64,000 nucleotides of DNA from positions 2,989-66,988 of the forward strand of contig CAYYXX010000001.1 in NCBI GenBank assembly GCA_964475905.1, read 5' to 3'. This DNA is from an uncultured Clostridium sp. GTDB taxonomy: Bacteria > Bacillota_I > Bacilli_A > RF39 > UBA660. The notes beneath the pieces were generated by a model. The model ran no database searches and was not told where the DNA came from. It saw only the letters and a program-made list of their open reading frames with translations. Position 1 is the first letter of the stretch; each line of letters starts with the position of its first letter. Shown here piece by piece: positions 12,313 to 59,635 of this stretch. Both the position numbers and the translations under genes were made by a program.

Positions 12313-13162
12313 CTATCTTTCTATCAACATAATCATTTAAAACAGCCATAAGTTGTTTAAAAAACACTTTTAACTCCTCACTATCAAAACATAAAGAGTC
12401 TAATATTCTAGAAATATAATTATTCTGCTTAAGTAAATAATAAGAATATCTATAATTAAAAGAATACATCTTAGATAAAGTAACTAAAACTTCATCACTT
12501 GCATTATCACTAACCTTTGAACTAATAGTTTTAAATTTCTTAAAATCCTCATAAACAAGACTATTAGGATAACTTTTAATAACAGTATCAACATAAGGAT
12601 AATTAACAAATAATCTAAAAAAATCTAAATTATGAGCATCCTTTATAATAGCACACATATGTTTAGTCTTCTCATCAATATCAGGAGGAAACCCATTCTT
12701 ATCATAAGCAAACAAAGTCATCTTAATAACATTATCATACTTAGTATCTTTACTAATTTCTCTAATTAACTTTTTTCCAAACAAAACATCAATAGTCCTT
12801 TTATAAGTATCATCTTCCGTATCCATCTGATAATTAGGAGTCTTAGAAAAGTTACCTATTTCATGAAATAACCCAATAAGTTCACAGACCGCTATCTCTT
12901 CAGAAGAAAAAATACCAAGACCAGTAGCAAGTTCTCTACATATTTCCATAACCTTAAGAGAGTGAAAATACCTAGATTTAATATATGAATTATTCATATC
13001 ATACTTTCTAACATATTGTTCAAATATTTTCATAATCCTCTCACTTTTCATAAATTCCTCCTTTTGGTTAATATAAGTATATACTAAAATACTATATTTT
13101 TCAAGTGTTATTTCACCTCGCACTAAAGTTGCTCGTTGTTTTATGAAGCCTAAGGTCTTCAT
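12296..13162 (-). CDS. HD-domain phosphohydrolase-like protein, co-transcribed with valS
   Basis: H...HD.G metal-binding signature (FHSLKV...GLFHEIG); overlaps the valS start by 17 nt. Confidence 0.6.
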
Positions 13163-13192
13163 AAAAAACTTTAGAGCCTAAGGTCTCTAAAG
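13143..13192 (-). terminator. tandem hairpins with CCTAAGGT loops; the downstream-most one (on the minus strand) is followed by U6, the likely terminator of the dnaE-gmk transcript
   Basis: atgaag-cctaaggt-cttcat and ctttagag-cctaaggt-ctctaaag. In the minus-strand RNA the second hairpin is followed by UUUUUU. Confidence 0.6.
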
Positions 13193-13311
13193 TTAAGATT
13201 ATTTTATTAATTTATCAGTATAACGAAGAGGAGCTATTGCTTTTATTAATTAATACAGGAAGTCATAGTGACTTGTTTAATACTGATTTTTCATTGAAGT
13301 TAATGTTCTCC

Positions 13312-13881
13312 TTATTTCCTCTTTTCCTTATTAATAATATCAATTATTTCAGTAACAGTTTTATCAACAGTATTGTTGATAACTACATAATCATACTTAT
13401 TACTATTCTTAATTTCCTCTTTAGCCATATCAAGTCTTTCATTAATAACCTCTTCAGAATCAGCTCCTCTAGTTCTAATTCTTCTTTCCAATTCTTCAAA
13501 AGAGGGAGGCATAAGAAAAATACTAATAGCTTCAGGATATATATTTTCAACAGAAAGAGCCCCCCTTATATCCAAAACACCAATAACATCATAACCCATA
13601 TCAATATTATCAAATACAAACTCACTCGGAGTCCCATAATAATTACCATTAAATAAAGTATACTCTAAAACCTCATTATTCTTAATACTATCTTCAAAAG
13701 TTTTAACATCAACAAAGAAATAATCTTTACCATCTATTTCATTAAACCTCTTATCTCTCGTAGTCATAGACACAGAATAAATAGCCTTAGTCCTTTCAAC
13801 AAGAGCCTTAGCCACAGTATCCTTACCAACACCACCGGGTCCAGAAATAACAACAAATTTACCTTTATTCACATTTATCAC
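13312..13881 (-). CDS. gmk: guanylate kinase
   Basis: GPGGVGKDT P-loop and guanylate-kinase fold; 189 aa. Confidence 0.9.
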   Translation of the reverse strand: MINVNKGKFVVISGPGGVGKDTVAKALVERTKAIYSVSMTTRDKRFNEIDGKDYFFVDVKTFEDSIKNNEVLEYTLFNGNYYGTPSEFVFDNIDMGYDVIGVLDIRGALSVENIYPEAISIFLMPPSFEELERRIRTRGADSEEVINERLDMAKEEIKNSNKYDYVVINNTVDKTVTEIIDIINKEKRK

Positions 13882-16796
13882 TCCAATACATTAAAATTAT
13901 TAATAATAATCTGATATTTATCATATCTTCTTTCAACTCTACCAAAAACTTTTAAAATATTCCCCACCTTAACAGAAGAAAATTTCTTATAGACATTAGG
14001 AAAACAAGTAAATTGAATTTCACCAAATTCATCACTACCAGTAATAAAAGCCATAACATCATTATTCTTAGTAGTAGTCTCTCTTAAACTACTAATCATA
14101 ACAACTACAATAACATTCTTATTAAAAAAGCGACTAATATTAGAACTATTAACCCCAATCCCCTCATCCCTATACTTAACAGACGGATGTTCAGTAAGAT
14201 AAAAACCAATAGTTTTAAGTTCTAAAGAAGTAAGAATAGAATTATCAAACTCATCATACTCAGTAATTTCAGGCTTCAAAGCCTCAATAAGTCCAGAGTC
14301 TTTAGCAATATCAGCATAATTAAGAATAGTATCTAAATTTTGAATTAAAGTTCTTTTATTATATCCAAAATTCAAAGCCCCTGCATAAATAAGATTAGAA
14401 ATAATCTTCTTACCAATTCCATAATTAACACATCTAGTAATAAAATCAATCGGAGATAAAAATAACCCCTTTTCCCTTTCATTTAAAATATCATTAGAAA
14501 TAGAATTACCAACTCCAATAACAATAGATAAAGGACATCTAATCCCCTCTTGAGAAACAAAAAATTTATCACTACTTTCGTTAACATCAGGAGCAAGAAT
14601 TCTAATCCCATCTCTTCTAGCTCTATTAATATAAGTATTAAGTTTAGCACTATTACCAATAGAATTAGTAAGAATACCCGCGATAAAATATTTAAGAAAA
14701 TGCGTTTTAATAAAAGCCATTTTATAAGCTGTTATTGCATAAGAAACAGAATGAGATTTATTAAAACCATAATTAGCAAATTTAAGAATTAAATCATATA
14801 CTCTTGAAGATACCTCTTCATCATAACCATTATTTAAGCATCCCTTTATAAACTTAGGTCTTTCTGCAAGAATAACACTTTCTTTCTTCTTAGACATAGC
14901 TCTTCTTAAAATATCTGCCTCACCAAAAGAATAACCTGCCATCTTTCTAACAATTTGCATAATCTGCTCCTGATAAATAATAATACCATAAGTAGGTCTT
15001 AAAATATCTTCTAAATCAGGATGAATATAATCAATAACTTCTCTTCCCTCTCTTCTAGCAATAAATAAATCAATATTATCCATAGGACCGGGTCTATATA
15101 AAGCAAGAGCAGTCGATATATCAAGAAAAGAATTAATTTTAAGCTTAGCCAAAAATCTTTTCATTCCGGGAGATTCAAACTGAAAAATACCATCAGTATC
15201 AACATCATAAAAAACTTTCAAAGTCTGTTTATCATCTAAAGGAATTTTATCAAAACTAATATTAATTTTTTCTTTCTTTCTAATTTCCTCAATAACATTA
15301 CTAATTAAAGTTAAATTATCAAGTCCTAAAAAATCCATCTTAAGAAGCCCCAAAGGTTCTAAGTAATCCTTAGAAAAACCAGATACATACATATTAAGAG
15401 AAGTTTTATATAAAGGAATAACATTATCAATATCCACACTACTCATAACAATACCAGCAGCATGAATAGAAATATGTCTAGGAAGACCCTCAAGATAAGT
15501 AGAAATATCATAAAGATTTTTATAATCACTATTTGAATTAATAAGTCTATAAAATTTACTACCACTAACATAACTATCCTTAAGTTCCCGAGTAGTAATA
15601 GATTTAGCAATCTCATCAATAATAGGAAGAGAAATATTAAGAATTCTACCAACATCACGAATAACCTGTTTAGCCCCTAAAGTATTAAAAGAAATAATAC
15701 CAACCGCCCTCTTTTCACCATACTTATTCATAACATAATTAGTAACAATATTTCTCTTATCACTATCAAAATCAATATCAATATCAGGCATGGTTACCCT
15801 TTCAGGATTTAAAAATCTTTCAAACAATAAATCATACTTAATAGGATCAACATCCGTAATACCAATAGAATAACTAACTAAACTACCCGCTGCACTTCCC
15901 CTCCCAGGTCCCACTAAAATATTATTAAATTTAGCATACTTAACATAATCCCAAACAACCAAAAAATAATCACAAAATCCCATTTTATTAATAACATCAA
16001 GTTCATATTTAAGTCTATTCTTATAAACATCATTAACATTACCATTTAATCTTTTATTAAGTCCCTTATTACATAAATTACAAAGAAATTCAAAAGAATT
16101 AATATTCTTATCATAAATAGGAAGAAGATTTTTATTATTATCAAAAGAGACATTACAAGAATTAACAATATATTCCATATTAATTAAAGCCTGATCATCA
16201 ATAAAATAATTAAATTCATCACTATCAAGTAAATGTCTATTTTTATAAGTATTAAGTTCAAATTCCCCCAGTTTTTTATCTTCCCTAATCATCATAAGAT
16301 AATCAAGATACTTATAATCATCCTTATAAATATAAGAAATATCACTAATAAAAACAGCCTTATTCCCAATATTCTCTCTCTCTTCTACACTAGAATACCC
16401 AATAAAGAACTCATCAAAAAGATCTATAATATCCCCATTATAAGAAGAAATAGGCATAATTAAAACAATATTTTTAGAGTAAAGCTTAAGATCATCATAA
16501 GAAATCTCTCTATCAGAAATAATCGTAGATAACTTAATAAGATTTTTATACCCATCATTATTTTTAGCAATTAAAATAAAATTGTTAAAAGAGTATTTAA
16601 TCTCCATTCCAATAATAGGCTTAATATCATTCTTAATACAAGCAAGATAAAATTCATACACTCCAAACATATTGTTAACATCAGTAATAGCTAAAGAGAA
16701 GTAACCAAGCTCTTTAGCCCTTTTTGTCAAAATATCAATTCTATTTAAACTACTTAAAATAGAATAACAAGTTTTAACTTCTAAAGCACAAAGCAT
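13878..16796 (-). CDS. dnaE: DNA polymerase III alpha subunit (DnaE-type)
   Basis: 972 aa; N-terminal PHP domain, polymerase core and fingers, C-terminal OB fold; RBS GGAGG. Confidence 0.9.
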   Translation of the reverse strand: MLCALEVKTCYSILSSLNRIDILTKRAKELGYFSLAITDVNNMFGVYEFYLACIKNDIKPIIGMEIKYSFNNFILIAKNNDGYKNLIKLSTIISDREISYDDLKLYSKNIVLIMPISSYNGDIIDLFDEFFIGYSSVEERENIGNKAVFISDISYIYKDDYKYLDYLMMIREDKKLGEFELNTYKNRHLLDSDEFNYFIDDQALINMEYIVNSCNVSFDNNKNLLPIYDKNINSFEFLCNLCNKGLNKRLNGNVNDVYKNRLKYELDVINKMGFCDYFLVVWDYVKYAKFNNILVGPGRGSAAGSLVSYSIGITDVDPIKYDLLFERFLNPERVTMPDIDIDFDSDKRNIVTNYVMNKYGEKRAVGIISFNTLGAKQVIRDVGRILNISLPIIDEIAKSITTRELKDSYVSGSKFYRLINSNSDYKNLYDISTYLEGLPRHISIHAAGIVMSSVDIDNVIPLYKTSLNMYVSGFSKDYLEPLGLLKMDFLGLDNLTLISNVIEEIRKKEKINISFDKIPLDDKQTLKVFYDVDTDGIFQFESPGMKRFLAKLKINSFLDISTALALYRPGPMDNIDLFIARREGREVIDYIHPDLEDILRPTYGIIIYQEQIMQIVRKMAGYSFGEADILRRAMSKKKESVILAERPKFIKGCLNNGYDEEVSSRVYDLILKFANYGFNKSHSVSYAITAYKMAFIKTHFLKYFIAGILTNSIGNSAKLNTYINRARRDGIRILAPDVNESSDKFFVSQEGIRCPLSIVIGVGNSISNDILNEREKGLFLSPIDFITRCVNYGIGKKIISNLIYAGALNFGYNKRTLIQNLDTILNYADIAKDSGLIEALKPEITEYDEFDNSILTSLELKTIGFYLTEHPSVKYRDEGIGVNSSNISRFFNKNVIVVVMISSLRETTTKNNDVMAFITGSDEFGEIQFTCFPNVYKKFSSVKVGNILKVFGRVERRYDKYQIIINNFNVLE

Positions 16797-16818
16797 AATT
16801 ACTCCTCCTTATCAAAAA

Positions 16819-17127
16819 TTAATATCTAAGTAATAAATAAGTAATAATAAATCCAGAAATAGCAATAATTCCCGCTAAAGTAATAACACCAGCAAACCCA
16901 TTACTACCAATACCAATATTAGCTACATTCTTAGAATTATTAATCTCCTTAGATAAAACCTTAGTTTTAGGCTTATTAACCAAAGTAATAGCCTCAGGCA
17001 TTTCAATAGGAGCCCCACTTCCTTCTATTTCTAATCTAGAAGTACCATTCCTATCAACAAAAGTTTTTTCTAATTTATTAGGATTAAACTCAAAACCATA
17101 ATCATTCTCTTTCATACCTACCCTCAC
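16819..17127 (-). CDS. hypothetical small protein with a C-terminal TM anchor
   Basis: 102-aa ORF between dnaI and dnaE, with a 4-nt overlap with the dnaI stop; no motif. Confidence 0.35.
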   Translation of the reverse strand: MRVGMKENDYGFEFNPNKLEKTFVDRNGTSRLEIEGSGAPIEMPEAITLVNKPKTKVLSKEINNSKNVANIGIGSNGFAGVITLAGIIAISGFIITYLLLRY

Positions 17128-18035
17128 TTTCTTCTATTCTCCGCAATCATAGTAATACTATCTGTTAAATACTTAATTCTCTCAATAATTCGTCTTGCCT
17201 TAATTTTACCCTCAATATCATTACCAATAAGATGAATCTCCAATTCCTTAAGAGATAAATTAGAAGTAAAAAAAGTAGGTAAATACTCTTGCATCCGATA
17301 CTGCAGAATAGTTCCTAAAACTTCATCTCTATTCCAACTAGTAACAGTCTCTGCTCCAATATCATCAATTAAAAGTAAATCACATTTTTTAACTTTATCA
17401 AAAATCTCTTTATAATCATCAGAGAATCTCTCTTTAAGACTTCTTAAAAACTCTGGATAATATAAGCAAGCAACTTTCTTACCCTTTTTAGCAAGTTCAT
17501 TAAAACAAGCCGCCACTACATATGTTTTACCACATCCAAAGTTACCTGTCAAGAATAAACCCTTACTTTTTTCTCCATTTTCTTGTTTTTTAATAAAAGT
17601 AGTAAGCCATTTAATTGTTTCAAGTCTATTCTTATCATCAGTATAAATCTCTTTCATAGAAGCATTAACAATCTCACAAGGCATATCAAAAGAAATAATA
17701 TTCTCTCTATAAGCATTCTCTGTATCCATTTTCTTCTTATACTTACAAGGAACATAAGAAAAAACAATATTTCCCTGTTCAATAATAGGATAATAAACAT
17801 ATCCACATAATTCATTTTTACATTCCATAATATTCTTACAATTCTTACAATTCTTAAGTTCTAAAGCAGAATCCTCAATACTAGAAGTATACTTAATAAG
17901 TTCATCTCTAGAAATCTTAAGTTTAGAGACAATCTTCTTAAAAGTATCATCCTCCATAGCAATATCAAAATTTCTCTCTAATGCGTATCTATCAAAACTA
18001 TACTTATTACCCATAATATTTTTAGCATCTTTCAT
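17124..18035 (-). CDS. dnaI: primosomal helicase loader DnaI
   Basis: N-terminal Cys-rich zinc-binding region plus an AAA+ Walker A (GNFGCGKTY) and Walker B (LLLIDDIG). Confidence 0.8.
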   Translation of the reverse strand: MKDAKNIMGNKYSFDRYALERNFDIAMEDDTFKKIVSKLKISRDELIKYTSSIEDSALELKNCKNCKNIMECKNELCGYVYYPIIEQGNIVFSYVPCKYKKKMDTENAYRENIISFDMPCEIVNASMKEIYTDDKNRLETIKWLTTFIKKQENGEKSKGLFLTGNFGCGKTYVVAACFNELAKKGKKVACLYYPEFLRSLKERFSDDYKEIFDKVKKCDLLLIDDIGAETVTSWNRDEVLGTILQYRMQEYLPTFFTSNLSLKELEIHLIGNDIEGKIKARRIIERIKYLTDSITMIAENRRK

Positions 18036-19318
18036 TACTTATACTCCTTTAAAAGTTCTTCTAGCTGATTATCCTCACCATCACTAATTATATTTTTTTC
18101 AATTTCCTTATCAAACCAATCAGGAATTTTAGCATTAACCCTTTTTTCTTCTAATTTCTTTTTACTTCTCTTTTTATGTTCCTTTTCACAAAGACTCATA
18201 GCATCCTCAACAGTCTCAATTCCTTTTCTTTGCCATTCCCCAGCCATCATTTCAACAAGCCCTCTTGTAAGCTTTTTATCATTAACATTAAGAATATAAT
18301 CAATAAGAACATTAACAACCCCAGGTTTCAATTTATAATCAATACACAAATCTTCCACCAATTTCAAATCTCTTCTAGTAGGCTCATTACCCTTATTCTT
18401 ACTAATAAGAAGTTCTCTAGGAGAAATAGTCTCAAAAGTATAAATCATTTTAGCTCTCTTAGAAGTATCACCAACAGGCTTTCTTAAATACTCAGGCTGA
18501 CATCTAGAAACAATAGTAGGAAGATTACCCCCATTATCAAACTGATAAATATTTCTAGCACCCTTTCTTAACATTTCTTTATTAATAGTACCTTTCTCAT
18601 TAAAAGAAGCCATAACAATATTAGACATCTTAATAGCATCAATATCATAAATAAAAGATAAACTAATAATAAGTTCCTTAATCTCTTTAGTAAAAACTTT
18701 ATTAGTATCAATATTCTTAGGCATAGAATTTACAAGAAAATTAAAATCAAAATTACTATTAATACTAAGCTTAAGCCTATTATATTTTCTAATATCCTCA
18801 AGGGACATTTCATAAGAAGTCATACAAGTACTCTCAAAAACCTCATTAAACTTTTTCGTAACATCAGTATAACCCGTAGTATTAAATCTAGGCATTTTAA
18901 AACTCTTAACTAAATTATCATATTCAATTTTACCAATATTACTATATAAAACAATATTAAGAATAGGATGAGACAAAAATTCCATAGCACTAGCAGGACT
19001 ATATAGCTCATACACATAATTATTAACACTACCCTCTTTTACCAAAGATTTAATAAGACAAATAGCTTCTAATTTTCCTCTAGCCTCTTCAACTTCATTA
19101 ATAGTCATTCTAAGATTAGAAACTATCTTTTGATGTGTATAAACCGAACTAACAATTAATGAATTATCCAAATCAACCCAAAGTAAAAAATAAAGCATAA
19201 CAGCATCAATACCAATAACAGGGAGATATAAACTAGTAATAATTTTTCTATCTTCATCATGTAATATTGTTTTATTAATAACAACATAAGTATCAGCGGG
19301 TAAAAGATTATGTTTCAT
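18035..19318 (-). CDS. dnaB: replication initiation and membrane attachment protein (Firmicute DnaB/DnaD-like)
   Basis: C-terminal DDBH2 motif (YILNV...GEWQRKGIETVEDA) and dnaB-dnaI synteny. Start at MKHNLL is uncertain; the track ORF extends 45 codons upstream. Confidence 0.7.
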   Translation of the reverse strand: MKHNLLPADTYVVINKTILHDEDRKIITSLYLPVIGIDAVMLYFLLWVDLDNSLIVSSVYTHQKIVSNLRMTINEVEEARGKLEAICLIKSLVKEGSVNNYVYELYSPASAMEFLSHPILNIVLYSNIGKIEYDNLVKSFKMPRFNTTGYTDVTKKFNEVFESTCMTSYEMSLEDIRKYNRLKLSINSNFDFNFLVNSMPKNIDTNKVFTKEIKELIISLSFIYDIDAIKMSNIVMASFNEKGTINKEMLRKGARNIYQFDNGGNLPTIVSRCQPEYLRKPVGDTSKRAKMIYTFETISPRELLISKNKGNEPTRRDLKLVEDLCIDYKLKPGVVNVLIDYILNVNDKKLTRGLVEMMAGEWQRKGIETVEDAMSLCEKEHKKRSKKKLEEKRVNAKIPDWFDKEIEKNIISDGEDNQLEELLKEYK

Positions 19319-19407
19319 AAAAAATCCCTGCCTTTCTCTATATATTGTATAATAAAAAAAAATAAAAGTAAAGAAAAAAGAAGCCAAAATAACCTCCCTT
19401 AAAAACT

Positions 19408-20073
19408 CTATTTTTTCTTCCAAAAACAAAGTAAAGAAATAATAAATAAACAAATACCAATAATAAAAATATAAGAGTTATATTGATATAAAAAAGAACT
19501 AACTAAATTAACAAAGATATGAACTAAACTAATCTTAATCACATCTCTAGTCTTAATAAAAATATAACCATTAATAATTCCAATAAAAAAAGCAATAACA
19601 AGTGATAAAAAATTAGAATGGGCTATAGCGAAAATAAAACTAGATAAAAAAATAATAACCCACTTATTAGAAATAAACTTCTCAAGCTTTATAATAAATA
19701 AATACCTAAACAAAATCTCTTCAAAAATAGGACCAACAATACTAGAAGCTACAACAATAAGAAGAATAGAAATATCATAATCCTGATAAGAATAAATACC
19801 ATATTTATAAAGAAGCATATTATAAATAATAGATATAGATAATCCCAGTAAAATATAAGGAAAATAATTATTTTTATCATTAAAAGAAATATCAATTCTC
19901 TTCATATTAAAAATAATAAATAAAATATCAAATACCATAATCAAAATAGTACCAATATAATAACTCCTACTAACACTAAAAACAATAATAGAAAGAATAA
20001 GAATAAAATATTGAATAAAAAAAACAATTATTATTTCTTTTAAAGATAAAATAAAATTCCATAAATACTTCAT
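19408..20073 (-). CDS. CPBP-family (CAAX) intramembrane metalloprotease
   Basis: Multi-pass membrane protein with EEILFR and FxxxH motifs. Confidence 0.65.
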   Translation of the reverse strand: MKYLWNFILSLKEIIIVFFIQYFILILSIIVFSVSRSYYIGTILIMVFDILFIIFNMKRIDISFNDKNNYFPYILLGLSISIIYNMLLYKYGIYSYQDYDISILLIVVASSIVGPIFEEILFRYLFIIKLEKFISNKWVIIFLSSFIFAIAHSNFLSLVIAFFIGIINGYIFIKTRDVIKISLVHIFVNLVSSFLYQYNSYIFIIGICLFIISLLCFWKKK

Positions 20074-20139
20074 AAAACCTCCAAATAAAAATAAGATAGC
20101 TTAAATACAACTAGCTGTCTTATATAAAAGTACTTCATT

Positions 20140-20352
20140 TTAAGCCTTAACATTAGTCTCGGTAGAAACATTAATAGCTTGTAAACCTTTAGCTGTTTCA
20201 ATAAGTTCGAATTCTACAATTTGACCTTCAGATAATGATTTATAGCCATCTTGCTTAATAGCAGAATAGTGAACGAAAATATCTTCGCCATTAGGATAAT
20301 CAATAAAGCCATAACCCTTATCATTGTTAAACCATTTAACTCTTCCTTGCAC
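20140..20352 (-). CDS. cspA: cold-shock protein (CspA family)
   Basis: [17 protein letters not shown]...VHYSAI RNP motifs; 70 aa; about 250-nt upstream untranslated region. Confidence 0.9.
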
Positions 20353-20599
20353 TTTGCCACCTCACTTTTCTTAACTTCCCTACAAGAATATTATAATATA
20401 CTGCACAACCCTTTTGCAAACAATTAAGTATGACAAAATTCGACAAATACTCTTAAGATGAACACTTACTCTTACCGCAAGCAAAACAATCATACCACCA
20501 ATTAACTACCAATAACCCTCTTCACATACAAATAAAGAAAACGAGATACCAAAAGGGCTAAAGTTAACTGTTTGTGTACAAAAAAAATAGATAAAAAAT

Positions 20600-21478
20600 C
20601 TATTTAATTTCCACATTCATAATTTCAAGAATTCTATTCAAATCATTAGCATTTTCAAAATAAATACAAACCTTCTTACTATCTACCTTAACCTTAGTAC
20701 CAAGAAAATCCCTAAGCTCATTCTCAATATGAAAATAATTAGCATCTGCTCTCTTCCTAGAAACAGGAATTCTCTTTTTAATTTCTTCATTCTTACTAAT
20801 CTCTTCTAAATCATGAACACTCATATTATTTTTAATAACCTCATCAGCAAGACTATTAATCTTTTCAGTATCCTCCATCTTAGAAAGAACTCTAGCATGT
20901 CCCATAGAAATTTCTCCATCAAGAATCTTCTTTTGAATATCTTGAGGTAAATTAAGAAGTCCTAAAGTATTAGTAATATGACTTCTACTCTTACCAATCT
21001 TTCTAGCTAAATCCTCTTGTCTAATATCTAAATTATCAATAATCCCCTTATAAGCCCAAGCAAGCTCTATCGCAGTAAGATTCTCCCTTTGAATATTCTC
21101 AAGTAAAGAAATCTCTCTCATCTCTTCATCAGAAAACTCCTTAACAATAGCGGGAATCTTATCCATACCAGCTATCTTACTAGCTCTAAGTCTTCTTTCA
21201 CCAGCAATAAGATCATAACCTTTGATCCCCTTTTTTACTATAATAGGTTGAAAAACTCCATAATTCTTAATAGACTCAGCCAATTCATTAAGAGCCTCTT
21301 CATTAAAAGTTTTTCTTGGCTGATAAGGATTAGGCCGAACATCATTAACATCAATTTCCATTACTTCATCAGCAGAAGCATTTTCCATAACATTACTTTC
21401 AAAAGTATCAAAATCAAGTACTTCACTAGAAAATAATTCTTCTAGTCCCTTACCTAAGGCTTTCTTCTTCTGTTCCAT
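20600..21478 (-). CDS. parB: chromosome partitioning protein ParB/Spo0J
   Basis: ParB box GERRxRA, HTH and C-terminal dimerisation domain. Confidence 0.9.
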   Translation of the reverse strand: MEQKKKALGKGLEELFSSEVLDFDTFESNVMENASADEVMEIDVNDVRPNPYQPRKTFNEEALNELAESIKNYGVFQPIIVKKGIKGYDLIAGERRLRASKIAGMDKIPAIVKEFSDEEMREISLLENIQRENLTAIELAWAYKGIIDNLDIRQEDLARKIGKSRSHITNTLGLLNLPQDIQKKILDGEISMGHARVLSKMEDTEKINSLADEVIKNNMSVHDLEEISKNEEIKKRIPVSRKRADANYFHIENELRDFLGTKVKVDSKKVCIYFENANDLNRILEIMNVEIK

Positions 21479-21542
21479 TTCTTATAATAAACTACTTTGC
21501 TAAATTAAGATAATCAATATTACATTTATTCCTAGGATAATA

Positions 21543-22262
21543 CTACAAAATTGGTTTAACATTACTATGATCTTCTGCTAATCTAACAAGTCTAGGAATA
21601 ATAGTATCATATACTCTCTCCTTAAAGAACCCTTTAATACTTTCTATTACTTCAATACCAAGATTAGTATTAGAAAACATAGTAAGAAGAACCCCCTCAA
21701 TATCTAAATTAGGATTAACTTTTCTTTGTGCCAACATAATAGTATTAATAAGCTGCATAATACCCTCAAGAGCAAAATATTCACACTGTACTGGAATAAG
21801 AACAGAATCAGAAGCGGCAAGTGCATTAGTCGTTAAAATACCAAGACTAGGAGGACAATCAATTAAAATAAAATCATAATTATCTTTGACTAGTCCAAGT
21901 TCTTCTTTTAACCTAACCACTCTATTAAACTTTTCTCCAGTTTCTTTAGCCTTTCTTTCTAATTCAATTAATTCCATATCAACCCCCGCTAAATTAAGAT
22001 AAGCAGGTAGTAAATAAAGATTTTTACTCTTAGTTTTTATAATAGAATTTTCGATAGTTTCTTTTTTAGTTAAAACTTCATAAACACTACTAGATATATC
22101 ACTCTTATCAACTCCAACTCCAGTAGTAGCATTCCCCTGTGGATCAAGATCAACAAGTAATACTTTCTTATTTAATACTCCTAAAGAAGCTGATAAATTT
22201 ATACTGGTAGTAGTTTTCCCAACTCCACCCTTTTGATTTACAATTGCTATAATTTTTCCCAT
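21543..22262 (-). CDS. parA: chromosome partitioning ATPase ParA/Soj
   Basis: Deviant Walker A KGGVGKTT. Start moved to MGKIIAIVNQ (RBS AAGGTGA). Confidence 0.9.
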   Translation of the reverse strand: MGKIIAIVNQKGGVGKTTTSINLSASLGVLNKKVLLVDLDPQGNATTGVGVDKSDISSSVYEVLTKKETIENSIIKTKSKNLYLLPAYLNLAGVDMELIELERKAKETGEKFNRVVRLKEELGLVKDNYDFILIDCPPSLGILTTNALAASDSVLIPVQCEYFALEGIMQLINTIMLAQRKVNPNLDIEGVLLTMFSNTNLGIEVIESIKGFFKERVYDTIIPRLVRLAEDHSNVKPIL

Positions 22263-22428
22263 CTGTTTCACCTTAATTTTCCTCATATATATTGTACCAA
22301 AAAAAAATAAAAAAAGAAAGTGATTTTTGTATATTTTCTTATTTACCAAACAACTGTATTATTTTATACTAAAACTAAATACTAAGTAAAGCACCTATAC
22401 TGAAAGTATAAAAAAACGCCAAAAATCC

Positions 22429-22457
22429 TTGACATAATCAAAATAAAAATATATAAT
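22429..22457 (+). promoter_or_regulatory. sigma-A promoter for rpmH-rnpA (TTGACA - 17 nt - TATAAT)
   Basis: Perfect consensus hexamers with 17-nt spacing, about 35 nt upstream of the rpmH ATG. Confidence 0.55.
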
Positions 22458-22490
22458 AAAATAGCATTTGACTTGGAGGTGTATTGTATA

Positions 22491-22613
22491 ATGAAAAGAA
22501 CATATCAACCTAATAATAGAAAAAAAGCTAAAAAGCACGGTTTCTTTAGTAGAATAAAAGGTAATGTTTTAAAAAATAGAAGAGCAAAAAAAAGAAAAAA
22601 ATTATGTGCTTAA
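22491..22613 (+). CDS. rpmH: 50S ribosomal protein L34
   Basis: [40 protein letters not shown]; RBS GGAGGTG; not in the track because it is under 60 aa. Confidence 0.9.
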
Positions 22614-22659
22614 AAACATAATTTTATTTTCTTTTTTTCTTTTTATAATTAGAGGTATT

Positions 22660-22998
22660 ATGAAAAAAATAGAAATAATAAAATCATCACAAGAGTATAC
22701 TGAAATAATAAATACAAATAAATCCAAAAAAAGTAAATATTTTAGTATATATTATAGAAAAAACAATAAAGACAATAGATATGGAATAACCATACCTAAA
22801 AAAACAGGAAAAGCTGTAATAAGAAATAAAATAAAAAGAAGGATAAAAAACATTATTGATAACAATAAAAAAATCGTGTATAATGGTTATGACTATGTTA
22901 TAATTGTTAAGAAAGGAATATTAGAATTAACATATGAAGAAATAGAAAAAGAATTGTTAAAACTAATAAGTATAGGTGATAAATGTGAAAAAAAGTAA
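22660..22998 (+). CDS. rnpA: RNase P protein component
   Basis: Basic protein of about 112 aa directly downstream of rpmH; start at MKKIEII with RBS AGAGG. Confidence 0.85.
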   Translation: MKKIEIIKSSQEYTEIINTNKSKKSKYFSIYYRKNNKDNRYGITIPKKTGKAVIRNKIKRRIKNIIDNNKKIVYNGYDYVIIVKKGILELTYEEIEKELLKLISIGDKCEKK

Positions 22999-23935
22999 AA
23001 AAGTACTAAAAATACTACTACTAATAATGATGATAGTAGTATCAACAGGTTGTACTAAAATACTAACAGATGAAAATAAAAAAGCCGTAAAATATGAAGA
23101 AACAGGAAAAACATTAACAGAAAATGTATTATGTAAACCAACAGATGAAAAAGTCGTAAAACTATATAAAGAAAACAATGTAGATGTTGATAAATTACCA
23201 TCATGCGAGTCATTCAAACCATTTGAAGAATATGAAGGACTATGGACTACAATATTCGTAAAACCATTAGCTTGGGTAATCATAAATATAGGAATTCTTT
23301 TAGAAAAAATAAATATAAGTAAAGGAATAGCCAATGGCTTAGCTATAGTAATATCATGTTTAATAATAAGATTAGTACTATATCCATTTACTAAGAAGAC
23401 TGCTATGCAATCAGAAAAGCTAAAAGAAGTTCAACCCCAATTAGAAAAATTAGAAAAGAAATATAAAGATAAAAATAGTGAAGAAGATCAAAGAAAAAAA
23501 GCCGAAGAAATGATGGCTATATATAGCAAAAATAAAATAAATCCACTATCAAGTTGTCTTCTATCATTTATTCAAATACCACTACTATTTGCCTTTTTAG
23601 AAGCCATAAATAGAACTCCCGTAATATTTGAAAATAAATTTCTAAAATTAGATATGGGAACAACTATATCCCATGGTATAATGTCTAATCTTTGGTACAT
23701 ATATCTATTATTCTTAATAATTATATTAGGAACATCATATTTATCATTTAGAAAAACATTAAAAGATCAAACAGCAATGCAAGCTCAAATGAAAGGAACA
23801 ATATATTTTATGTTAGCAATGATTTTAGTAGCATCATTTAGCTTACCAGTAGCCCTAGGAATTTATTGGATAACTTCATCACTATTTACCATAGCACAAA
23901 ATATATTAGTTGAAAGAAAGAAGGTAAAGAAGTAA
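22985..23935 (+). CDS. yidC: membrane protein insertase YidC (lipoprotein type)
   Basis: Lipobox VSTGC signal and a 5-TM YidC core. Start is GTG at 22985 (RBS AGGTGA plus 6 nt) or GTG at 22976; uncertain. Confidence 0.8.
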   Translation: MKKSKKVLKILLLIMMIVVSTGCTKILTDENKKAVKYEETGKTLTENVLCKPTDEKVVKLYKENNVDVDKLPSCESFKPFEEYEGLWTTIFVKPLAWVIINIGILLEKINISKGIANGLAIVISCLIIRLVLYPFTKKTAMQSEKLKEVQPQLEKLEKKYKDKNSEEDQRKKAEEMMAIYSKNKINPLSSCLLSFIQIPLLFAFLEAINRTPVIFENKFLKLDMGTTISHGIMSNLWYIYLLFLIIILGTSYLSFRKTLKDQTAMQAQMKGTIYFMLAMILVASFSLPVALGIYWITSSLFTIAQNILVERKKVKK

Positions 23936-24543
23936 TGAATAAGTATTATTATGAAGGAAAAACATACCAGCAGGCTATAGACTTAGCTATAGAAGAATTA
24001 AAAATATCTGAAGAAGATTTAATAATAAATAAAGTAGAAGAAAAAAATAATCTATTAAAAAAGGCTGTATTAATAGAAGTATATAATATAAATGAAATAA
24101 TATCATTCATAAAAGAAACAATAAATGAAATTACTAAGAGAATGAATGCTGAATCCAATCTTGAAGTAAGAAGAAGAGAAGAAAATATATCAGTAACAAT
24201 TTTTTCCAGTAATAATGCAATACTAATAGGTAAAAATGGAAAAAATATATCTGCTATGCAATTATTAATAAGACAAATGGTTAATTCAAAATTAAATAAA
24301 CCAATATCAATAATAATAGATGTAGGAAATTATAAAGAAAAAAGAGCTAAAAATATAGAATATTTAGCTAAAAAATTAGCTCATGAAGCATATAAAACTA
24401 AAACAGAAATAACAATGGATAGTATGAATTCATATGAAAGAAGAATTGTTCATTCAGTATTAGCAGATGATAAATATGTCTATACTGAGTCAGTAGGAGA
24501 AGAGCCAAATAGACGCGTAGTAATAAAATTAAAAGAAAGTTAA
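23935..24543 (+). CDS. jag: Jag/KhpB RNA-binding protein (KH plus R3H domains)
   Basis: C-terminal R3H (SYERRIVH); conserved yidC-jag-mnmE synteny. Confidence 0.8.
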   Translation: MNKYYYEGKTYQQAIDLAIEELKISEEDLIINKVEEKNNLLKKAVLIEVYNINEIISFIKETINEITKRMNAESNLEVRRREENISVTIFSSNNAILIGKNGKNISAMQLLIRQMVNSKLNKPISIIIDVGNYKEKRAKNIEYLAKKLAHEAYKTKTEITMDSMNSYERRIVHSVLADDKYVYTESVGEEPNRRVVIKLKES

Positions 24544-24609
24544 TAACAATAAATACTTTCTTTTTTTGTTCACACCTAGCCTTAAACAAGTTTAAGTCTT
24601 GCTGTGTAA

Positions 24610-24639
24610 TTTAGAGCCTATATAAATATAGTCTCTAAA
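24610..24639. repeat. hairpin repeat: same stem (tttagag/ctctaaa) as the 13169-13192 element but with a different loop
   Basis: tttagag-cctatataaatatagt-ctctaaa; preceded by the cttaaac-aa-gtttaag hairpin at 24581-24596. Confidence 0.45.
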
Positions 24640-24777
24640 TTATGTCCCTATGGACCTATTATATATAAGCCAAGCATTAGCAGTTGACATAAATTTTAAT
24701 TCATATTATCAAAATAAAATGACAAAATCATTATATTGTGATAAAATACTAAGGAATGAAGAAAGAAGGTGTATACC

Positions 24778-28665: not shown

Positions 28666-28684
28666 TATAACTAACCATTTATTG

Positions 28685-28715
28685 CCACTTAAGTCTAAGG
28701 TCTTAAGTGGTTTTT
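28685..28715 (+). terminator. rho-independent terminator after rsmG with a TCTAAGGT loop (member of the CCTAAGGT-loop hairpin family)
   Basis: ccacttaag-tctaaggt-cttaagtgg then TTTTT. Confidence 0.65.
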
Positions 28716-28898
28716 GTAAGCCAAAAGTCTTACAAAAAAAACATTTTTATTCTGTAGTAGACCATAAAAAAATTAGTCAAAATAAATAAGTGCTTAACAT
28801 AAAATGACAAAAAACAAAAAAATCACTTGTAAAAAAGCAATTTTTATAGTATTATTGTATTAGAGTAGGAAAGAAGAAATTAAAGAGGGTGTATAACT

Positions 28899-33111: not shown

Positions 33112-33171
33112 TATAATATACCATGTAATTTTATTACTATGACATTAGTCATGGCGGAAGGAGAGAAAATA

Positions 33172-33381
33172 ATGAAAAAAAATATTCATCCAAATTATGT
33201 AGAATCAACAGTAACATGTGCTTGTGGAAATACATTTAAAACAAAGTCATTAGAAGAAAATATACAAGTTGAAGTATGTTCAAAATGTCATCCATTTTAT
33301 ACAGGCAAACAAACATTAGGTTCTAAAAAAGGACAAGTTGAAAAATTCAATAAAAAATTTGGTTTCAACACTGATAAATAA
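33172..33381 (+). CDS. rpmE: 50S ribosomal protein L31
   Basis: MKKNIHPNY...CxCG...[10 protein letters not shown] zinc-ribbon L31. Confidence 0.9.
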
Positions 33382-48208: not shown

Positions 48209-48278
48209 AGGCAAAATATATCAATATACCAGTAAGAATAATAATTATTTCATTGTCTAAATTAAGAAAACTAAAAAT

Positions 48279-48355: not shown

Positions 48356-48378
48356 GCATATATATTAATAGGTGTAAC

Positions 48379-49041: not shown

Positions 49042-49120
49042 AATCACTTCAAAAAAAATAAAAAATAGTGTATACTCATAATAGAAAGAAATAACAAAAA
49101 GAAAAGAAAGGAAGTACACA

Positions 49121-49477: not shown

Positions 49478-49570
49478 TATAGTTATATTCCTTTTAAAAA
49501 AGAATAAAAAATATATCATTTTACAAAAAAGTGTGATATAATTTAATACAGAATAATGGGAGTTGATGCT

Positions 49571-50497
49571 ATGGAAAAGAATTTCAAGACAATAGAGGAA
49601 CAATTAGAAATACTAAAAAATAAAGCCCTAATAATAGAAGAAGAAAACGAAGTAAAAGAAATACTATTAAAAGAAAACTATTTCTTCATAATGGGATATA
49701 GACACGTATTTCTAAAATCAGAAAGAGATAAGAAGTTTATAGCGGGAACAACATTCAATGAAATATACTCATTATTCACATTTGATAGGAATTTTAGAAA
49801 TATAATATTTAAAAATGTATTAGTTATCGAAAATCAATTAAAATCTGTAATATCATATCAATTATCTAGAAAATATGGATACCGAGAAAAAGATTACTTA
49901 AATCCCAAAAATTTTACAGATAATCATGAAAAAGTAAGGCGTGTAAGAGATCTAATAGATAAGATGAAAAGACAAATAAGAATAAATGCCTCATCACATA
50001 ATGCCACAATGCACTATATAAATAATTACGGATATATTCCCTTATGGGTACTAGTAAAAGTATTATCCTTTGGTATTGTTTGTGAATTATATACCATACT
50101 AAAAAAAGAAGATCAAATAGAAATAGCAGAAATTTTCCAAACAACACCACAAGTATTAGAAGACATATTAATAATACTTTCAAATTACCGTAATTTATGT
50201 GCTCATGAAGATATTGTATTTGAACACAAAACAGAAAGAGTAATACCAGACACCAATTACCACACATTAATGAATATCCCAAAAATGGATGATGAATATA
50301 TATACGGGAAAAACGATTTATTTGCAGTAGTAATTATCTTCAAAATACTACTTAATAAGAAAGCATTTAGACTTATGATGAAAGAAATAGAATATGAAAT
50401 AGAATTATTAGATGGAAGAATAGATACCATTCCAATAAATAAAGTATTAGATAGAATGGGATTTCCAGAAAATTATATAGAAATAATAGAAATGTAG
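49571..50497 (+). CDS. Abi_2-family abortive-infection protein (AbiD/AbiF-like)
   Basis: NYGYIPLWVLVKVLSFG matches the Abi_2 conserved core; stand-alone. Confidence 0.6.
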   Translation: MEKNFKTIEEQLEILKNKALIIEEENEVKEILLKENYFFIMGYRHVFLKSERDKKFIAGTTFNEIYSLFTFDRNFRNIIFKNVLVIENQLKSVISYQLSRKYGYREKDYLNPKNFTDNHEKVRRVRDLIDKMKRQIRINASSHNATMHYINNYGYIPLWVLVKVLSFGIVCELYTILKKEDQIEIAEIFQTTPQVLEDILIILSNYRNLCAHEDIVFEHKTERVIPDTNYHTLMNIPKMDDEYIYGKNDLFAVVIIFKILLNKKAFRLMMKEIEYEIELLDGRIDTIPINKVLDRMGFPENYIEIIEM

Positions 50498-50505
50498 GTG
50501 AAAAA

Positions 50506-51621: not shown

Positions 51622-51651
51622 TACTTAGATTAATTTCTAAGTTTTTTATTG

Positions 51652-51702
51652 CCCCTCAAGCCTGTAGTCTTTAGGGGTATGAGAAAGCCTAAGGTCTTTC
51701 TC
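51652..51702. repeat. tandem hairpin repeats after htrA (loops CCTGTAGT and CCTAAGGT)
   Basis: cccctcaag-cctgtagt-ctttagggg and gagaaag-cctaaggt-ctttctc. Confidence 0.55.
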
Positions 51703-51804
51703 ATAAACAATTTTATATAATTATCAATTTTAATATCAAAACTATTGTATTTTATTATCAATTTTTGTTATAATAAATATGACAAAAAGAAAGGTGATTA
51801 ACAA

Positions 51805-53182: not shown

Positions 53183-53183
53183 A

Positions 53184-54197: not shown

Positions 54198-54301
54198 GAT
54201 TATAGAAATATAATCTTTTTTTAATTTCCAAGGACAATCTCTATTACAACAAAAATTAAACCAGCATAAAATAAAATGATTATGAATAGAGGTGAGAAAA
54301 T

Positions 54302-55442: not shown

Positions 55443-55569
55443 TATCCTCTTTTAACATTAATACAAACATAAGTATGATAAAAAAATAAAAATAAAAAAT
55501 ATTATACTCTTTACTTCACTATCTCATTAAAATATGATAAAATGAAATAAAGAAAGATGAGGTAACAAC

Positions 55570-57651: not shown

Positions 57652-57670
57652 AAAGAAAAGAGGAGTAGTT

Positions 57671-58624
57671 ATGAAAAAAACAATACTAAGCTTTATTCTT
57701 GTAATAACTATGATGATCGGAGAAATGATCATTCTAAACAATGATATTGAAGACATAAAATTAAATATAAATAAAGTAGAAGAAGAATTAAAAGGAAAGA
57801 AAGAAATAGAAAAAATAAAAGAAGAAAAAGATATTTTAAATGAAGATATCCAAAATATACTATCAGTATCCACCTTTAGTACACAAGAAATAGAAGAAAT
57901 AATGACTAGTGAAAAAACAATATCAGAAAAATTAGCCAAAGAAATAACTGACTTAGAAAATAAAATTATAAATTTAGAAGATAAATTAACAGATGTCCAA
58001 AAAGAATATTACAATATAGTAAAAGAAAATGCTAAGAAAAATACATTCTATATTTCTAATGTACCATTTATTAACCAATACCCCAATTATCCAACCGGAT
58101 GTGAATCAGTTGCCTTAACTATTCTATTAAAATATCACGGAGTATCAGTAACCCCTGATGACATTATTGCAAAATTACCCAAAGGAAGTACTCCAGTAGA
58201 AAAAAATGGTAAAATCTATGGAGGCAATCCAGAAGTAGAATTTATTGGCAATCCCTATAGCTTAAATGCCTATGGTGTATATGAAAAACCAATCGCTAAT
58301 GTAGCAAATAAATATAAAAGTGGTATTAAAATAGCAACAGGTACAAGTTTTGAAAAAATACTTGAAATAGTAAAAAGTGGAAAGCCAGTTATGGTATGGA
58401 CATCAATGTATTTAGCCGTTCCATACATATCAAAATCATGGATTTATGAACCAACAGGAGAAACAATTTATTGGAAAGCCAATGAACATGCCGTAGTTAT
58501 AATTGGATACACTGAAGATAAAGTAATTATATCTGACCCAATAGATGGTAAAGCTAAATATCAATCTAAAAGCATCTTCAAAGAAAGATATGATTATTAT
58601 GGAAAGAAGGCTCTATATTACTAA
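57671..58624 (+). CDS. peptidase_C39-like (YvpB/BtrH-type) domain protein with an N-terminal TM anchor and coiled coil
   Basis: QYPNYPTGCESVALTILLKYHG Cys motif and a downstream His. Confidence 0.6.
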   Translation: MKKTILSFILVITMMIGEMIILNNDIEDIKLNINKVEEELKGKKEIEKIKEEKDILNEDIQNILSVSTFSTQEIEEIMTSEKTISEKLAKEITDLENKIINLEDKLTDVQKEYYNIVKENAKKNTFYISNVPFINQYPNYPTGCESVALTILLKYHGVSVTPDDIIAKLPKGSTPVEKNGKIYGGNPEVEFIGNPYSLNAYGVYEKPIANVANKYKSGIKIATGTSFEKILEIVKSGKPVMVWTSMYLAVPYISKSWIYEPTGETIYWKANEHAVVIIGYTEDKVIISDPIDGKAKYQSKSIFKERYDYYGKKALYY

Positions 58625-58938
58625 TGAAAAGAAAAGAAAAGAAAATAATCCCAATAATATTAATGATAATAACCATAATAATATTTCTTCTATTAACATA
58701 TACACTATATCAAAAAATAACTATAAGTAGTAAAAATAAAGAATTAACTTCTTACTTAAAAGAATATAAAGCTTTAACAGAAGAAGTAGAAAATCTCAAA
58801 AACATAAAAGAAAATTATGAATTAATAAAAGAAAATAATCAAGAATTAGAAAAGCGAAAAAATGATCTAGAAAAAGAAATAACTACTCTAAATAATAAAA
58901 TTAATAATACTCAAAAAGAAATAGATAAACTAAAATAG
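58624..58938 (+). CDS. hypothetical TM plus coiled-coil protein (FtsL/DivIC-like architecture)
   Basis: One TM helix and about 70 aa of heptad-repeat coiled coil. Confidence 0.4.
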   Translation: MKRKEKKIIPIILMIITIIIFLLLTYTLYQKITISSKNKELTSYLKEYKALTEEVENLKNIKENYELIKENNQELEKRKNDLEKEITTLNNKINNTQKEIDKLK

Positions 58939-58983
58939 TATCTATTTCTTTTAAATTAACATATAATTTAATAGGAGGTATAC

Positions 58984-59538
58984 ATGGATTATAGTATTTT
59001 AGTAAATAAAGATAATCCCTTATCAAGAGCATATATCCCAAATACACTAGAAGAGGCAAGTAGTGAATATAAAGAAAAAATACTATTAGATAAAATGGCA
59101 TTAAAAGCTTTTCAAGAACTAAAAAAAGAAGCTAGCAAATATGGATATCATATAGATATAGTAAGTGGTTATAGAGACTATGAATATCAAGAAAAAATAT
59201 ATAATAAACTATTAGAAGAAAAAGGATTTACATATGCCATAACTCGAATAGCGGCTCCGGGAAAGAGTGAACATCAAACAGGATTAGCTTTAGATTTTTG
59301 CATATACAAAGATGGAAAATGCTATATAGAACATGATGTAGAAGATAAAATAGAAACAAAATGGATTCATCAAAATAGTTATAAATATGGTTTAATATTA
59401 AGATATCCAGAGGGTAAAGAAGATATAACTAAGTATAGTTATGAACCATGGCACTTAAGATATGTAGGGAATATAGCAAGTTATATATATAATAATAATT
59501 TAACATTAGAAGAATATAAAGAAAGAGAGTCTAAGTAA
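58984..59538 (+). CDS. D-alanyl-D-alanine carboxypeptidase, VanY / peptidase M15B family
   Basis: SGYRDYEYQ ... SEHQTGLALDF ... EPWHLRYVG zinc-binding motifs. Confidence 0.8.
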   Translation: MDYSILVNKDNPLSRAYIPNTLEEASSEYKEKILLDKMALKAFQELKKEASKYGYHIDIVSGYRDYEYQEKIYNKLLEEKGFTYAITRIAAPGKSEHQTGLALDFCIYKDGKCYIEHDVEDKIETKWIHQNSYKYGLILRYPEGKEDITKYSYEPWHLRYVGNIASYIYNNNLTLEEYKERESK

Positions 59539-59583
59539 TAGATTCTCTTTTAGTATCGCCTCACATTTCATTGTTCGGGCATT

Positions 59584-59635
59584 TTCTAATGCCTTAAAGT
59601 CATTAGAAAGTATTTTTGAGCCTAAGGTCTCAAAA
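59584..59635. repeat. tandem hairpin repeats after the VanY-like gene (loops CCTTAAAGT and CCTAAGGT)
   Basis: ttctaatg-ccttaaagt-cattagaa and ttttgag-cctaaggt-ctcaaaa; a conventional terminator hairpin precedes them at 59526-59554. Confidence 0.55.

Follow-up and report, generated by a model that had tools for sequence, protein, structure and literature searches.

Dispersed intergenic hairpin arrays defined by a mismatched collar in uncultured gut Bacilli

A stretch of 64,000 nucleotides from an uncultured Clostridium sp. of the order RF39 (assembly GCA_964475905.1, contig CAYYXX010000001.1, positions 2,989 to 66,988; hereafter the window) contains six intergenic clusters with 12 well-formed hairpins and, in addition, one decayed copy. 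All clusters are abutting arrays, and no single hairpins were found. The hairpins are dispersed homologous repeats in which a mismatched collar is retained while the stems change by compensatory substitutions; the occupied sites turn over between relatives, both orientations occur, and the 3' boundaries of genes are preferred. They represent a previously undescribed repeat family, a set of intergenic elements of gut Bacilli defined by the collar and not by the loop. The reading we favor, with a probability of about 0.55, is that they are copies of a clade-specific non-coding family of modular palindromic repeats, similar in kind to repetitive extragenic palindromes (REPs) and bacterial interspersed mosaic elements (BIMEs). 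The original prediction, made from the window alone, had described hairpins with a conserved 8-nt loop (YCTAAGGT) and unrelated stems, and offered as explanations a loop-specific RNA-binding protein, an RNase processing site, or a dispersed repeat akin to REP elements. Direct inspection of the window found all the hairpins it listed at their coordinates, and the evidence supports the last of the three options.

The repeat unit is a module of about 27 nt that can be written as N9-AGCC-(insert)-GTCT-N9'. A lower stem of 9–10 bp of free sequence lies beneath the collar, which folds as A-T, G-C, a C·T mismatch, and C-G (the mismatch becomes A·G on the complementary strand). The collar is capped by a small A/T-rich loop or by an additional upper stem. 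The sequence flanking the arms is variable, and AGCC/GTCT at the top of the stem is the sole invariant block. In 176 distinct units with 8-nt loops, A12 and T23 were invariant and C14 was a C in 98%; the search rule left positions 12 and 23 free and admitted C or T at position 14. The mismatched collar was found 268 times versus 7 for its two "repaired" versions. Among 51 neighboring hairpins picked solely by perfect 7-bp arms beside a known unit, the full collar was present in 29, and four carried AGCT...ATCT, with T-A in place of the top C-G pair and an unaltered C·T mismatch. The 8-nt loop was thus a misreading of this collar: the insert inside it varies in content and in length (3–23 nt), and TAAG, the commonest insert, occurred in only 11 of 77 units that had not been selected for it. 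Whole elements are about 55–110 nt long and consist of two or three same-direction hairpins placed head to tail; in certain subfamilies, these are followed by a 4-bp mini hairpin and by a tail, CTATTATATATAAG. Under the strict unit rule (8-nt arms with at least 7 of 8 positions paired, around G[C/T]C...GTC), all abutting arrays were same-direction (120 pairs and four triplets), and clusters on opposite strands were separated by 85 nt or more.

The bare 8-mer YCTAAGGT is weakly enriched in the window, with 8 matches against 3.96 expected; since 7 of 100 shuffles reached 8, this count alone is not significant and would agree with ordinary independent terminators whose loops are similar by chance or composition. 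The probability of that explanation is practically nil. The 8-mer together with its closing pair, GCCTAAGGTC, occurs four times against 0.01 expected, and 10 units were found against 0.14 in composition-matched shuffles (shuffle maximum, 1). Moreover, homology between copies extends past the hairpins, and hundreds of copies occur across related genomes. The 10-mer count, the unit enrichment, and the spread in relatives together refute an origin as chance terminators. A covariance model (R1) built from relatives and run without filters recovered the same six clusters in the window and no others, and the elements folded as single strands gave z-scores of −4.2 to −6.4.

The halves of the collar lie 3–23 nt apart yet are always joined by complementary arms; therefore, the element appears to be read as a fold and not as a duplex site of fixed spacing. 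Of the AGCC-N2-5-GTCT strings in the data set, 79% lie between such arms. The covariation count on the unit alignment (A1) was circular, because the units had been selected for pairing, and it was not used as evidence for the fold; the argument is built instead on the mini hairpin, which was not subject to selection, on the collars with a swapped pair, and on double changes between orthologous copies. The distance between the collar halves is unfit for the fixed half-site spacing expected if the units were duplex-DNA operators bound by a protein dimer, for instance, one of the ParB/Noc-like or nucleoid type. The units are near-palindromic with a conserved 12-bp center, the window lies close to a replication origin and encodes two ParB-family proteins, and it lacks a canonical parS or Noc site, all of which would suit such operators. 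Nevertheless, this explanation is very improbable: symmetric forms are few next to the asymmetric AGCC/GTCT form (7 versus 268), canonical parS is present elsewhere in the clade, and one hairpin neighboring a unit at a related locus itself carries the Noc-site consensus, ATTTCCCGGGAAAT. The search of the window for parS and Noc sites, with the 16-bp and 14-bp palindrome consensus, respectively, gave no match at up to 2 mismatches. A related metagenome-assembled genome (MAG), L193, has at least six canonical parS cores, GTTNCACGTGAAAC, within 1 kb (positions 62-1038), while the 64-kb window has none.

Comparison of the window copies by blastn revealed three subfamilies, with 71–80% identity over 70–79 nt. 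Subfamily A comprises the elements at 24.6 and 3.9 kb (80% identity over 79 nt); subfamily B, those at 13.1 and 59.6 kb (75% over 75 nt), grouped with copies in relatives at about 74%; and subfamily C, those at 28.7 and 51.7 kb (71% over 70 nt). The alignment of 25 subfamily-A copies defined an element of about 100 nt including both hairpins, the mini hairpin, and the tail, in the order TCACTCTA-AGCC..GTCT-TAGAGTG, TTATTTTT-AGCC..GTCT-AAAAATAA, the 4-bp mini hairpin, and the tail. Thus, the stems regarded earlier as unrelated are diverged homologues that group into sequence-related subfamilies. The mini hairpin covaries (GTAT/ATAC, GTCC/GGAC, GTGC/GCAC, ATGC/GCAT), and since it lies outside every search rule, it provides unbiased evidence of maintained pairing. 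In subfamily B, the "box" TTCGCACtaaagtnGCTCAC in front of the hairpin pairs is a degenerate third hairpin, intact versions of which read agttcgAGCCTAAGGTCTctcactg.

The stems have diverged through compensatory changes, so that pairing is kept while the collar, including its mismatch, is retained. Orthologous copies were compared in 55 overlapping, non-independent pairs in which the collar was not demanded in the second genome. The collar differed at 12/440 positions (2.7%), the stems at 39/990 (3.9%), and the flanks at 522/8809 (5.9%). The inner loop, assumed earlier to be the conserved part, was the most divergent one (51/276, or 18.5%, with many of the loop positions coming from long inserts). 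One orthologue had changed from AGCC..GTCT to ACAC..GTGT, with a pair swapped and the mismatch repaired, which indicates that pairing survives even when the collar is lost.

Gene context was scored for 163 clusters in 1.0 Mb of clade sequence, with open reading frames (ORFs) called for this analysis. Co-directional gaps contained 50 clusters in sense and 32 in antisense orientation, convergent gaps 23, and divergent gaps 20; five clusters overlapped a called ORF, and 33 had a neighbor lost at the end of the locus. The background comprised 392 co-directional, 52 convergent, and 78 divergent gaps. After merging of orthologues, 80 independent sites remained, including 28 sense, 16 antisense, 10 convergent, and 8 divergent ones. 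Relative to local GC skew, taken for the replication strand, the orientation was unbiased (67 versus 64). The median distance from the edge of the element to the neighboring stop codon is 31–43 nt and to the neighboring start codon about 104 nt, irrespective of the direction in which the element points.

The closeness to stop codons and the mild sense excess among independent sites are consistent with RNA modules selected by the host at transcript ends, such as terminators working in either direction, 3'-end stabilizers, or processing sites, with the collar read in RNA by a specific protein or RNase. The somewhat better conservation of stems and collar relative to flanks and the abundance of the elements in small genomes also agree with such a role, which we consider possible, although unlikely. 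On the opposite side, 16% of clusters occupy divergent promoter regions, a share equal to that of the background, and several relatives (L002, L004, L006, and others) keep a copy in the divergent gap next to parA, about 100 nt ahead of its start codon, where the window has none. In antisense orientation, the collar mismatch would be A·G instead of C·U, and one RNA reader could not serve both orientations. In addition, G·T accounted for 15 and A·C for 22 of the non-Watson-Crick stem positions, with no wobble excess. For the same reasons (28 sense against 16 antisense independent sites, presence in divergent promoter regions, and absence of a G·U excess), we do not favor the idea that the sense mRNA is the target of a loop-specific RNA-binding protein or contains an RNase site.

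The evidence on termination is likewise divided. At 28.7 and 59.6 kb, the interval from the stop codon to the element showed no ordinary terminator hairpin followed by a T-run, which speaks for an RNA role, but the elements at 24.6 and 51.7 kb already sit behind normal AT-rich terminators with a T-run. Overall, the 3' side of the unit is A-rich and not T-rich because 5' arms are usually rich in T and 3' arms in A. A T-run behind a unit in the direction of the upstream gene was found in 21/50 sense-placed and 10/32 antisense-placed arrays; in the sense-placed ones, such a run followed in the sense direction in 21 cases and in the antisense direction in 3, while about half of the arrays lacked a T-run in either direction. 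The terminator consensus scan flagged two of the five window loci it covered, 28684-28711 (+) and 13194-13167 (−). The latter, followed by TTTTAT, is on the minus strand, in the direction of gmk, so that the terminator-like calls follow the direction of transcription even in the antisense-placed pair at 13.1 kb. Both were flagged because in arrays the T-rich 5' arm of a unit directly follows the previous unit. An intrinsic terminator is placed downstream of a transcription unit and in its sense, and 20 clusters, representing 8 independent sites, were found in divergent gaps. The earlier suggestion that some hairpins act as terminators, judged by sequence features, is plausible for a subset, in either direction, but cannot define the family.

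The individual window copies agree with this design. The subfamily-A element at 3854..3950 (−), which the original prediction overlooked, was detected by R1 (E=1e-4) and has a DNA fold z-score of −4.7. It consists of hairpin 1 (3916-3950; cagtttgAG CC-TATCT AAA GATAG-GT CTcgcactg), hairpin 2 (3882-3915; ttattttaAGCC-TTATAAATAA-GTCTtaaaataa), whose long insert forms an extra upper stem, the mini hairpin GTGC ctac GCAC (3869-3880), and the conserved tail TTATTATATATAAG (3855-3868), all on the minus strand. The other subfamily-A element, at 24570..24670 (+), follows immediately after the ordinary jag terminator (24531-24564 + T7). Its hairpin 1 (24570-24606), also missed earlier, has an imperfect lower stem and an extended upper stem ttaaa-CAAG-tttaa; it is the partner of hairpin 2 (24607-24642; loop CCTATATAAATATAGT), where a long insert again forms an extra upper stem. 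The mini hairpin GTCC ctat GGAC (24644-24655) and the tail CTATTATATATAAGC (24656-24670) complete the element. Hairpin 2 had been reported to have exactly the same stem as the hairpin starting at 13167; the inner tttagag is indeed common to both, while the rest of the stem is not.

The subfamily-B element at 13116..13194 (+) lies between gmk (13312-13881) and an HD-domain gene starting at about 13105, both on the minus strand, and is antisense to both. It includes the degenerate hairpin 0, or "box", cctcgcactaaagttgctcgttg (13116-13138), hairpin 1 (13139-13166; ttttatgaag-CCTAAGGT-cttcataaaa), and hairpin 2 (13167-13194; aactttagag-CCTAAGGT-ctctaaagtt); the inner loop is TAAG in both well-formed hairpins, and the z-scores are −5.2 and −6.4. 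The placement of this pair 3' of gmk was correct in that it is downstream of the gene; since gmk is on the minus strand, the loop would read ACCTTAGG in gmk mRNA, and it was this antisense position that first indicated that the motif is independent of mRNA sense. The second subfamily-B element, at 59555..59637 (+), follows a VanY-family gene with a stop codon ending at 59538 and comprises degenerate hairpin 0 (59555-59581), hairpin 1 (59583-59609; loop CCTTAAAGT), and hairpin 2 (59612-59637; loop CCTAAGGT). The degenerate third hairpins of both subfamily-B elements are additions to the original list.

The subfamily-C pair at 28684..28738 (+) begins 19 nt past the rsmG stop codon. Hairpin 1 (28685-28710; loop TCTAAGGT) has the collar AGTC...GTCT with a T·T mismatch; hairpin 2 (28711-28738; loop CCAAAAGT) had been overlooked, and its TTTTT 5' arm is the T-run behind hairpin 1. 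The pair at 51651..51705 (+) is located just after the ordinary htrA terminator (51623-51642 + T6) and contains hairpin 1 (51652-51677; loop CCTGTAGT), with one stem mismatch, and hairpin 2 (51678-51705; loop CCTAAGGT). Finally, a decayed copy not noticed before (667..735, +; tcactctgtat..ctaagttcttcacaaaaa..taatCCTAAAGTCagtag, with TCCTAAAGTC at 715-724) lies in the gap bounded by the start of secA (591) and the stop of hpf (849) and is orthologous to an intact three-hairpin element of the relative L140.

Multi-hairpin covarying structures, including the mini hairpin of subfamily A that no search rule had selected, would also be expected if each array were an independent small RNA gene present in many copies or a cis-regulatory leader, and some subfamily-B copies abut an opposite-strand ribosome-binding site, for example, at 13105-13125. 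This possibility is improbable, given that the aligned copies show no conserved promoter or terminator in their surroundings, the orientation to neighboring genes is inconsistent, copies are decayed or absent at orthologous sites, and the genes adjoining the six window copies are functionally unrelated. Rfam gave no match at the elements at the gathering threshold or at E<=5, and a scan for tRNA and tmRNA found nothing.

The MnmG protein of the window is 83–88% identical to proteins of many metagenomic contigs, one of which is labeled "Bacilli bacterium" at NCBI, and relatives of the window carry SpoIIR and AgrB. A scan of the tandem pattern against one genome per species, where by our own estimate about 16 chance matches are expected, found at least 119 blocks. 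The matches listed came almost exclusively from gut MAGs, under the names uncultured Bacilli, Tenericutes, Clostridium sp. CAG:302, and Firmicutes CAG:321; one lay on a complete 1.46-Mb chromosome (CP091726.1). The same pattern gave one match in 2.9 M viral contigs. The density is roughly one cluster per 10–20 kb; in sequence not selected by motif (the window, L002, L004, and L006), 9 clusters were found in 129 kb, or about one per 14 kb. Sites differ between relatives: the rsmG and jag copies are absent at the same sites in L002, L004, and L006, and the hpf/secA site is occupied by the intact element in L140 and by the remnant in the window. At the orthologous hpf/secA site, L178, L155, and L168 have differing inserts of 1–1.9 kb with accessory ORFs. 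Variable islets of 1–3.4 kb also adjoin elements in other orthologous comparisons (L174 6526-7771, L210 2132-4208, L206 3829-7272, and L180 4971-7751); their ORFs are accessory-looking or unannotated as judged by eye, and none was recognizable by eye, with no family search made, as a transposase.

Typical elements were also found on low-GC contigs in bins of unrelated name, namely, L134, L135, L195, and L212 ("Paludibacteraceae"), L131 ("Oribacterium"), and L143 and L202 ("Campylobacter"). Since L134 and L195 have 93–99% identical counterparts in Bacilli MAG contigs, some of these bins look mis-binned. Two unrelated high-GC assemblies, L228 (1729-1808, −; 63% GC) and L255 (~1225-1320, +; 70% GC), each contain three tandem hairpins shortly past gene ends, of the form cGGAGCC-loop-GTCTCCg, with the same collar as the low-GC family. 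The strict high-GC pattern gave 0 matches in metagenomes, and the matches listed for the relaxed one were mostly coding-sequence noise with one convincing analogue, L255. From these sequence scans, high-GC arrays look rare, and shared machinery and convergence are both possible. A 14-mer scan of viral contigs produced mostly chance matches, except for a conserved phage hairpin, gtcAAGCCTAAGGTCTTgac, without an Rfam match, in a conserved region shared by the phage contigs L013, L086 (8491), L088, and L114.

Near-random orientation, presence in divergent gaps, and the lack of a G·U excess favor DNA as the primary level. The repeat family would be read in a folded form, as a hairpin or cruciform, and not as linear duplex, with effects on transcripts probably being a by-product. 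The reader is probably a structure-specific protein that copies, maintains, or uses the elements. As a secondary effect, an array could offer a "hairpin + U-run" to RNA polymerase arriving from either side and may in this way act as a terminator or 3'-end stabilizer at gene boundaries. Template switching in replication can keep palindromes symmetric; if it operates here, the persistent mismatch is stronger evidence of selection on the collar. In a more specific version, which is rather doubtful, the collar would be the recognition module of a putative structure-specific protein (nuclease, recombinase, or binding factor) that has folded DNA or RNA as its target and makes or maintains the arrays as orientation-independent boundaries of transcription units. 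If so, the same collar in L228 and L255 would mean that the system moved between phyla.

Several observations weigh against the repeat-family reading. The closeness to stop codons, the mild sense excess, and the T-runs in 30–40% of arrays fit a host RNA role equally well. The genomes are small, as the complete chromosome illustrates, and apparently poor in insertion sequences, so that a purely selfish element is less expected. The collar is only about twofold better conserved than the flanks, in non-independent pairs, and its invariance is partly inherent in the search rule. No exact insertion junction, empty site, or target-site duplication was definable among relatives, because even the closest of them (MnmG <=88% identical) have non-aligning intergenic DNA. 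A tblastn search of 0.94 Mb with the TnpA protein of IS608, a Y1 transposase, gave no match, and no multi-copy gene family was present among 922 ORFs in 0.94 Mb; both are weak tests, being limited to partial genomes.

The genomic setting of the window is as follows. It has 27% G+C, and its GC skew changes sign near 22-24 kb, rising from about −0.4 to positive values across 20000-24000. Genes to the left of the switch (secA, hpf, valS, gmk, dnaE, dnaI, parB, parA, and others) are without exception encoded on the minus strand, while starting with rpmH/rnpA/yidC/jag the plus strand encodes nearly all genes. Skew and gene orientation thus diverge between parA (21543-22349, −) and rpmH/rnpA (from ~22480, +), as at a replication origin, and a perfect TTGACA-17-TATAAT promoter is present at 22429-22457. 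No dnaA was found among the window ORFs checked; DnaD/DnaB-like and DnaI genes are located at 17124-19453. Between hpf and secA, the region 778-842 contains the DnaA-box-like strings TTATCAACAG and TGTGGACA and the perfect inverted repeat GTATCAACA-ATAAC-TGTTGATAC. Two adjacent tiny ORFs, 4050-4142 and 4162-4284 (+), are on the strand opposite to every neighboring gene, and their peptides (MSNCGCGTGSSAAIVLVLFILLIIILGAWI and a 40-aa paralogue) have a Cys/Gly-rich N-terminus and a hydrophobic tail. Two Rfam matches were below threshold. One, to the cspA thermoregulator (20208-20285, −; 42.7 bits, E=1.3e-7), overlaps ORF 20140-20352, a cold-shock-domain gene by synteny with relatives. The other, to the L31-Firmicutes leader (33137-33163, +; 32.4 bits, under the cutoff of 33.3), is at the 5' end of ORF 33139-33381, a likely L31 gene by synteny. 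Directly upstream of htrA, the gene at 49556-50497 (+) belongs to the Abi_2 (abortive-infection) family according to the annotation of an identical contig, L248.

Small dispersed palindromic repeats have been studied well in Proteobacteria and in a small number of cultured Firmicutes, but uncultured small-genome Bacilli, which are common in human and animal guts, are essentially uncharted in this respect. The combination of a free stem and a retained mismatch collar suggests that recognition depends on shape together with a few bases, and it provides a handle for finding the reader protein. Since the elements mark gene boundaries and adjoin variable islets, they could be useful for annotation, strain typing, and MAG binning. 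If arrays do stop transcription both ways, they would be compact insulator parts for low-GC hosts.

The elements resemble several known systems. With intrinsic terminators they share stable hairpins shortly past stop codons, some with a T-run, and they differ by the fixed collar, homologous flanks, A-rich 3' side, both orientations, presence in divergent gaps, and occasional position behind a normal terminator. Integron attC sites function only as a folded single strand and have a conserved structure with a few unpaired or mismatched bases and poor sequence conservation. As in attC, the mismatch marks one strand and the location is 3' of genes, but the neighbors are core housekeeping genes and not cassettes, the units are only about 27 nt long and tandem, their ends are free in sequence and lack R''/R' (RYYYAAC / GTTRRRY), and no integron integrase was seen among the ORFs examined; the variable gene islets beside some copies are a loose parallel only. 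The subterminal hairpins of IS200/IS605 elements are small, imperfect, and read as single-stranded DNA by a structure-specific enzyme, and their non-autonomous derivatives multiply. In comparison with them, no Y1 transposase was detected with the weak probe used here, no conserved cleavage tetranucleotide was definable at the ends, and the orientation has no replication-strand bias. Regarding miniature inverted-repeat transposable elements, the 25-copy alignment revealed defined ends of subfamily A (TCAC... to ...TATATATAAGC), with neither terminal inverted repeats nor a recognizable duplication. Searching the literature with the motif strings brought up nothing but unrelated primers, and published REP and stem-loop surveys do not cover this clade. 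The loop recalls half of the 11-nt tetraloop receptor (CCUAAG) and GCCUGUAGUC of signal recognition particle RNA, which we take to be a coincidence.

Low-GC Gram-positive bacteria have other modular intergenic hairpin repeats, such as the BOX elements of Streptococcus pneumoniae, RUP, and bcr1. Compared by description, BOX-type elements are similar in being about 100 nt long, non-coding, hairpin-forming, and variable in the number of modules. However, BOX modules are conserved in sequence, and to our knowledge, a design with a fixed collar and a free stem has not been reported for them. REPs, which occur in Gammaproteobacteria together with RAYT transposases, are marked by a conserved GT(A/G)G head at the 5' base of their palindrome (Nunvar et al. 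2010, PMC2817692). The rayt gene, encoding a Y1 transposase, lies between two inverted REPs. The collar family lacks this head, and the positions around its arms are variable. Its collar is conserved at the top of an otherwise free stem, whereas REPs are conserved throughout their sequence; its arrays are same-direction, whereas REPs alternate in BIMEs and form inverted pairs in REPINs. The host is a low-GC Firmicute lineage, and no RAYT gene was found by tblastn in 0.94 Mb, a weak test. At the same time, a short extragenic palindrome present in many copies is what was found here, with 6 clusters in the 64-kb window and the 163 clusters of the 1.0-Mb set almost entirely outside ORFs. Both REP/BIME sequences and the collar family consist of short imperfect extragenic palindromes of high copy number clustered in composite arrays, in both, complementary mutations preserve pairing around a non-complementary position inside the palindrome, and both are often located at the 3' ends of genes, where they could affect transcripts (PMC2817692).

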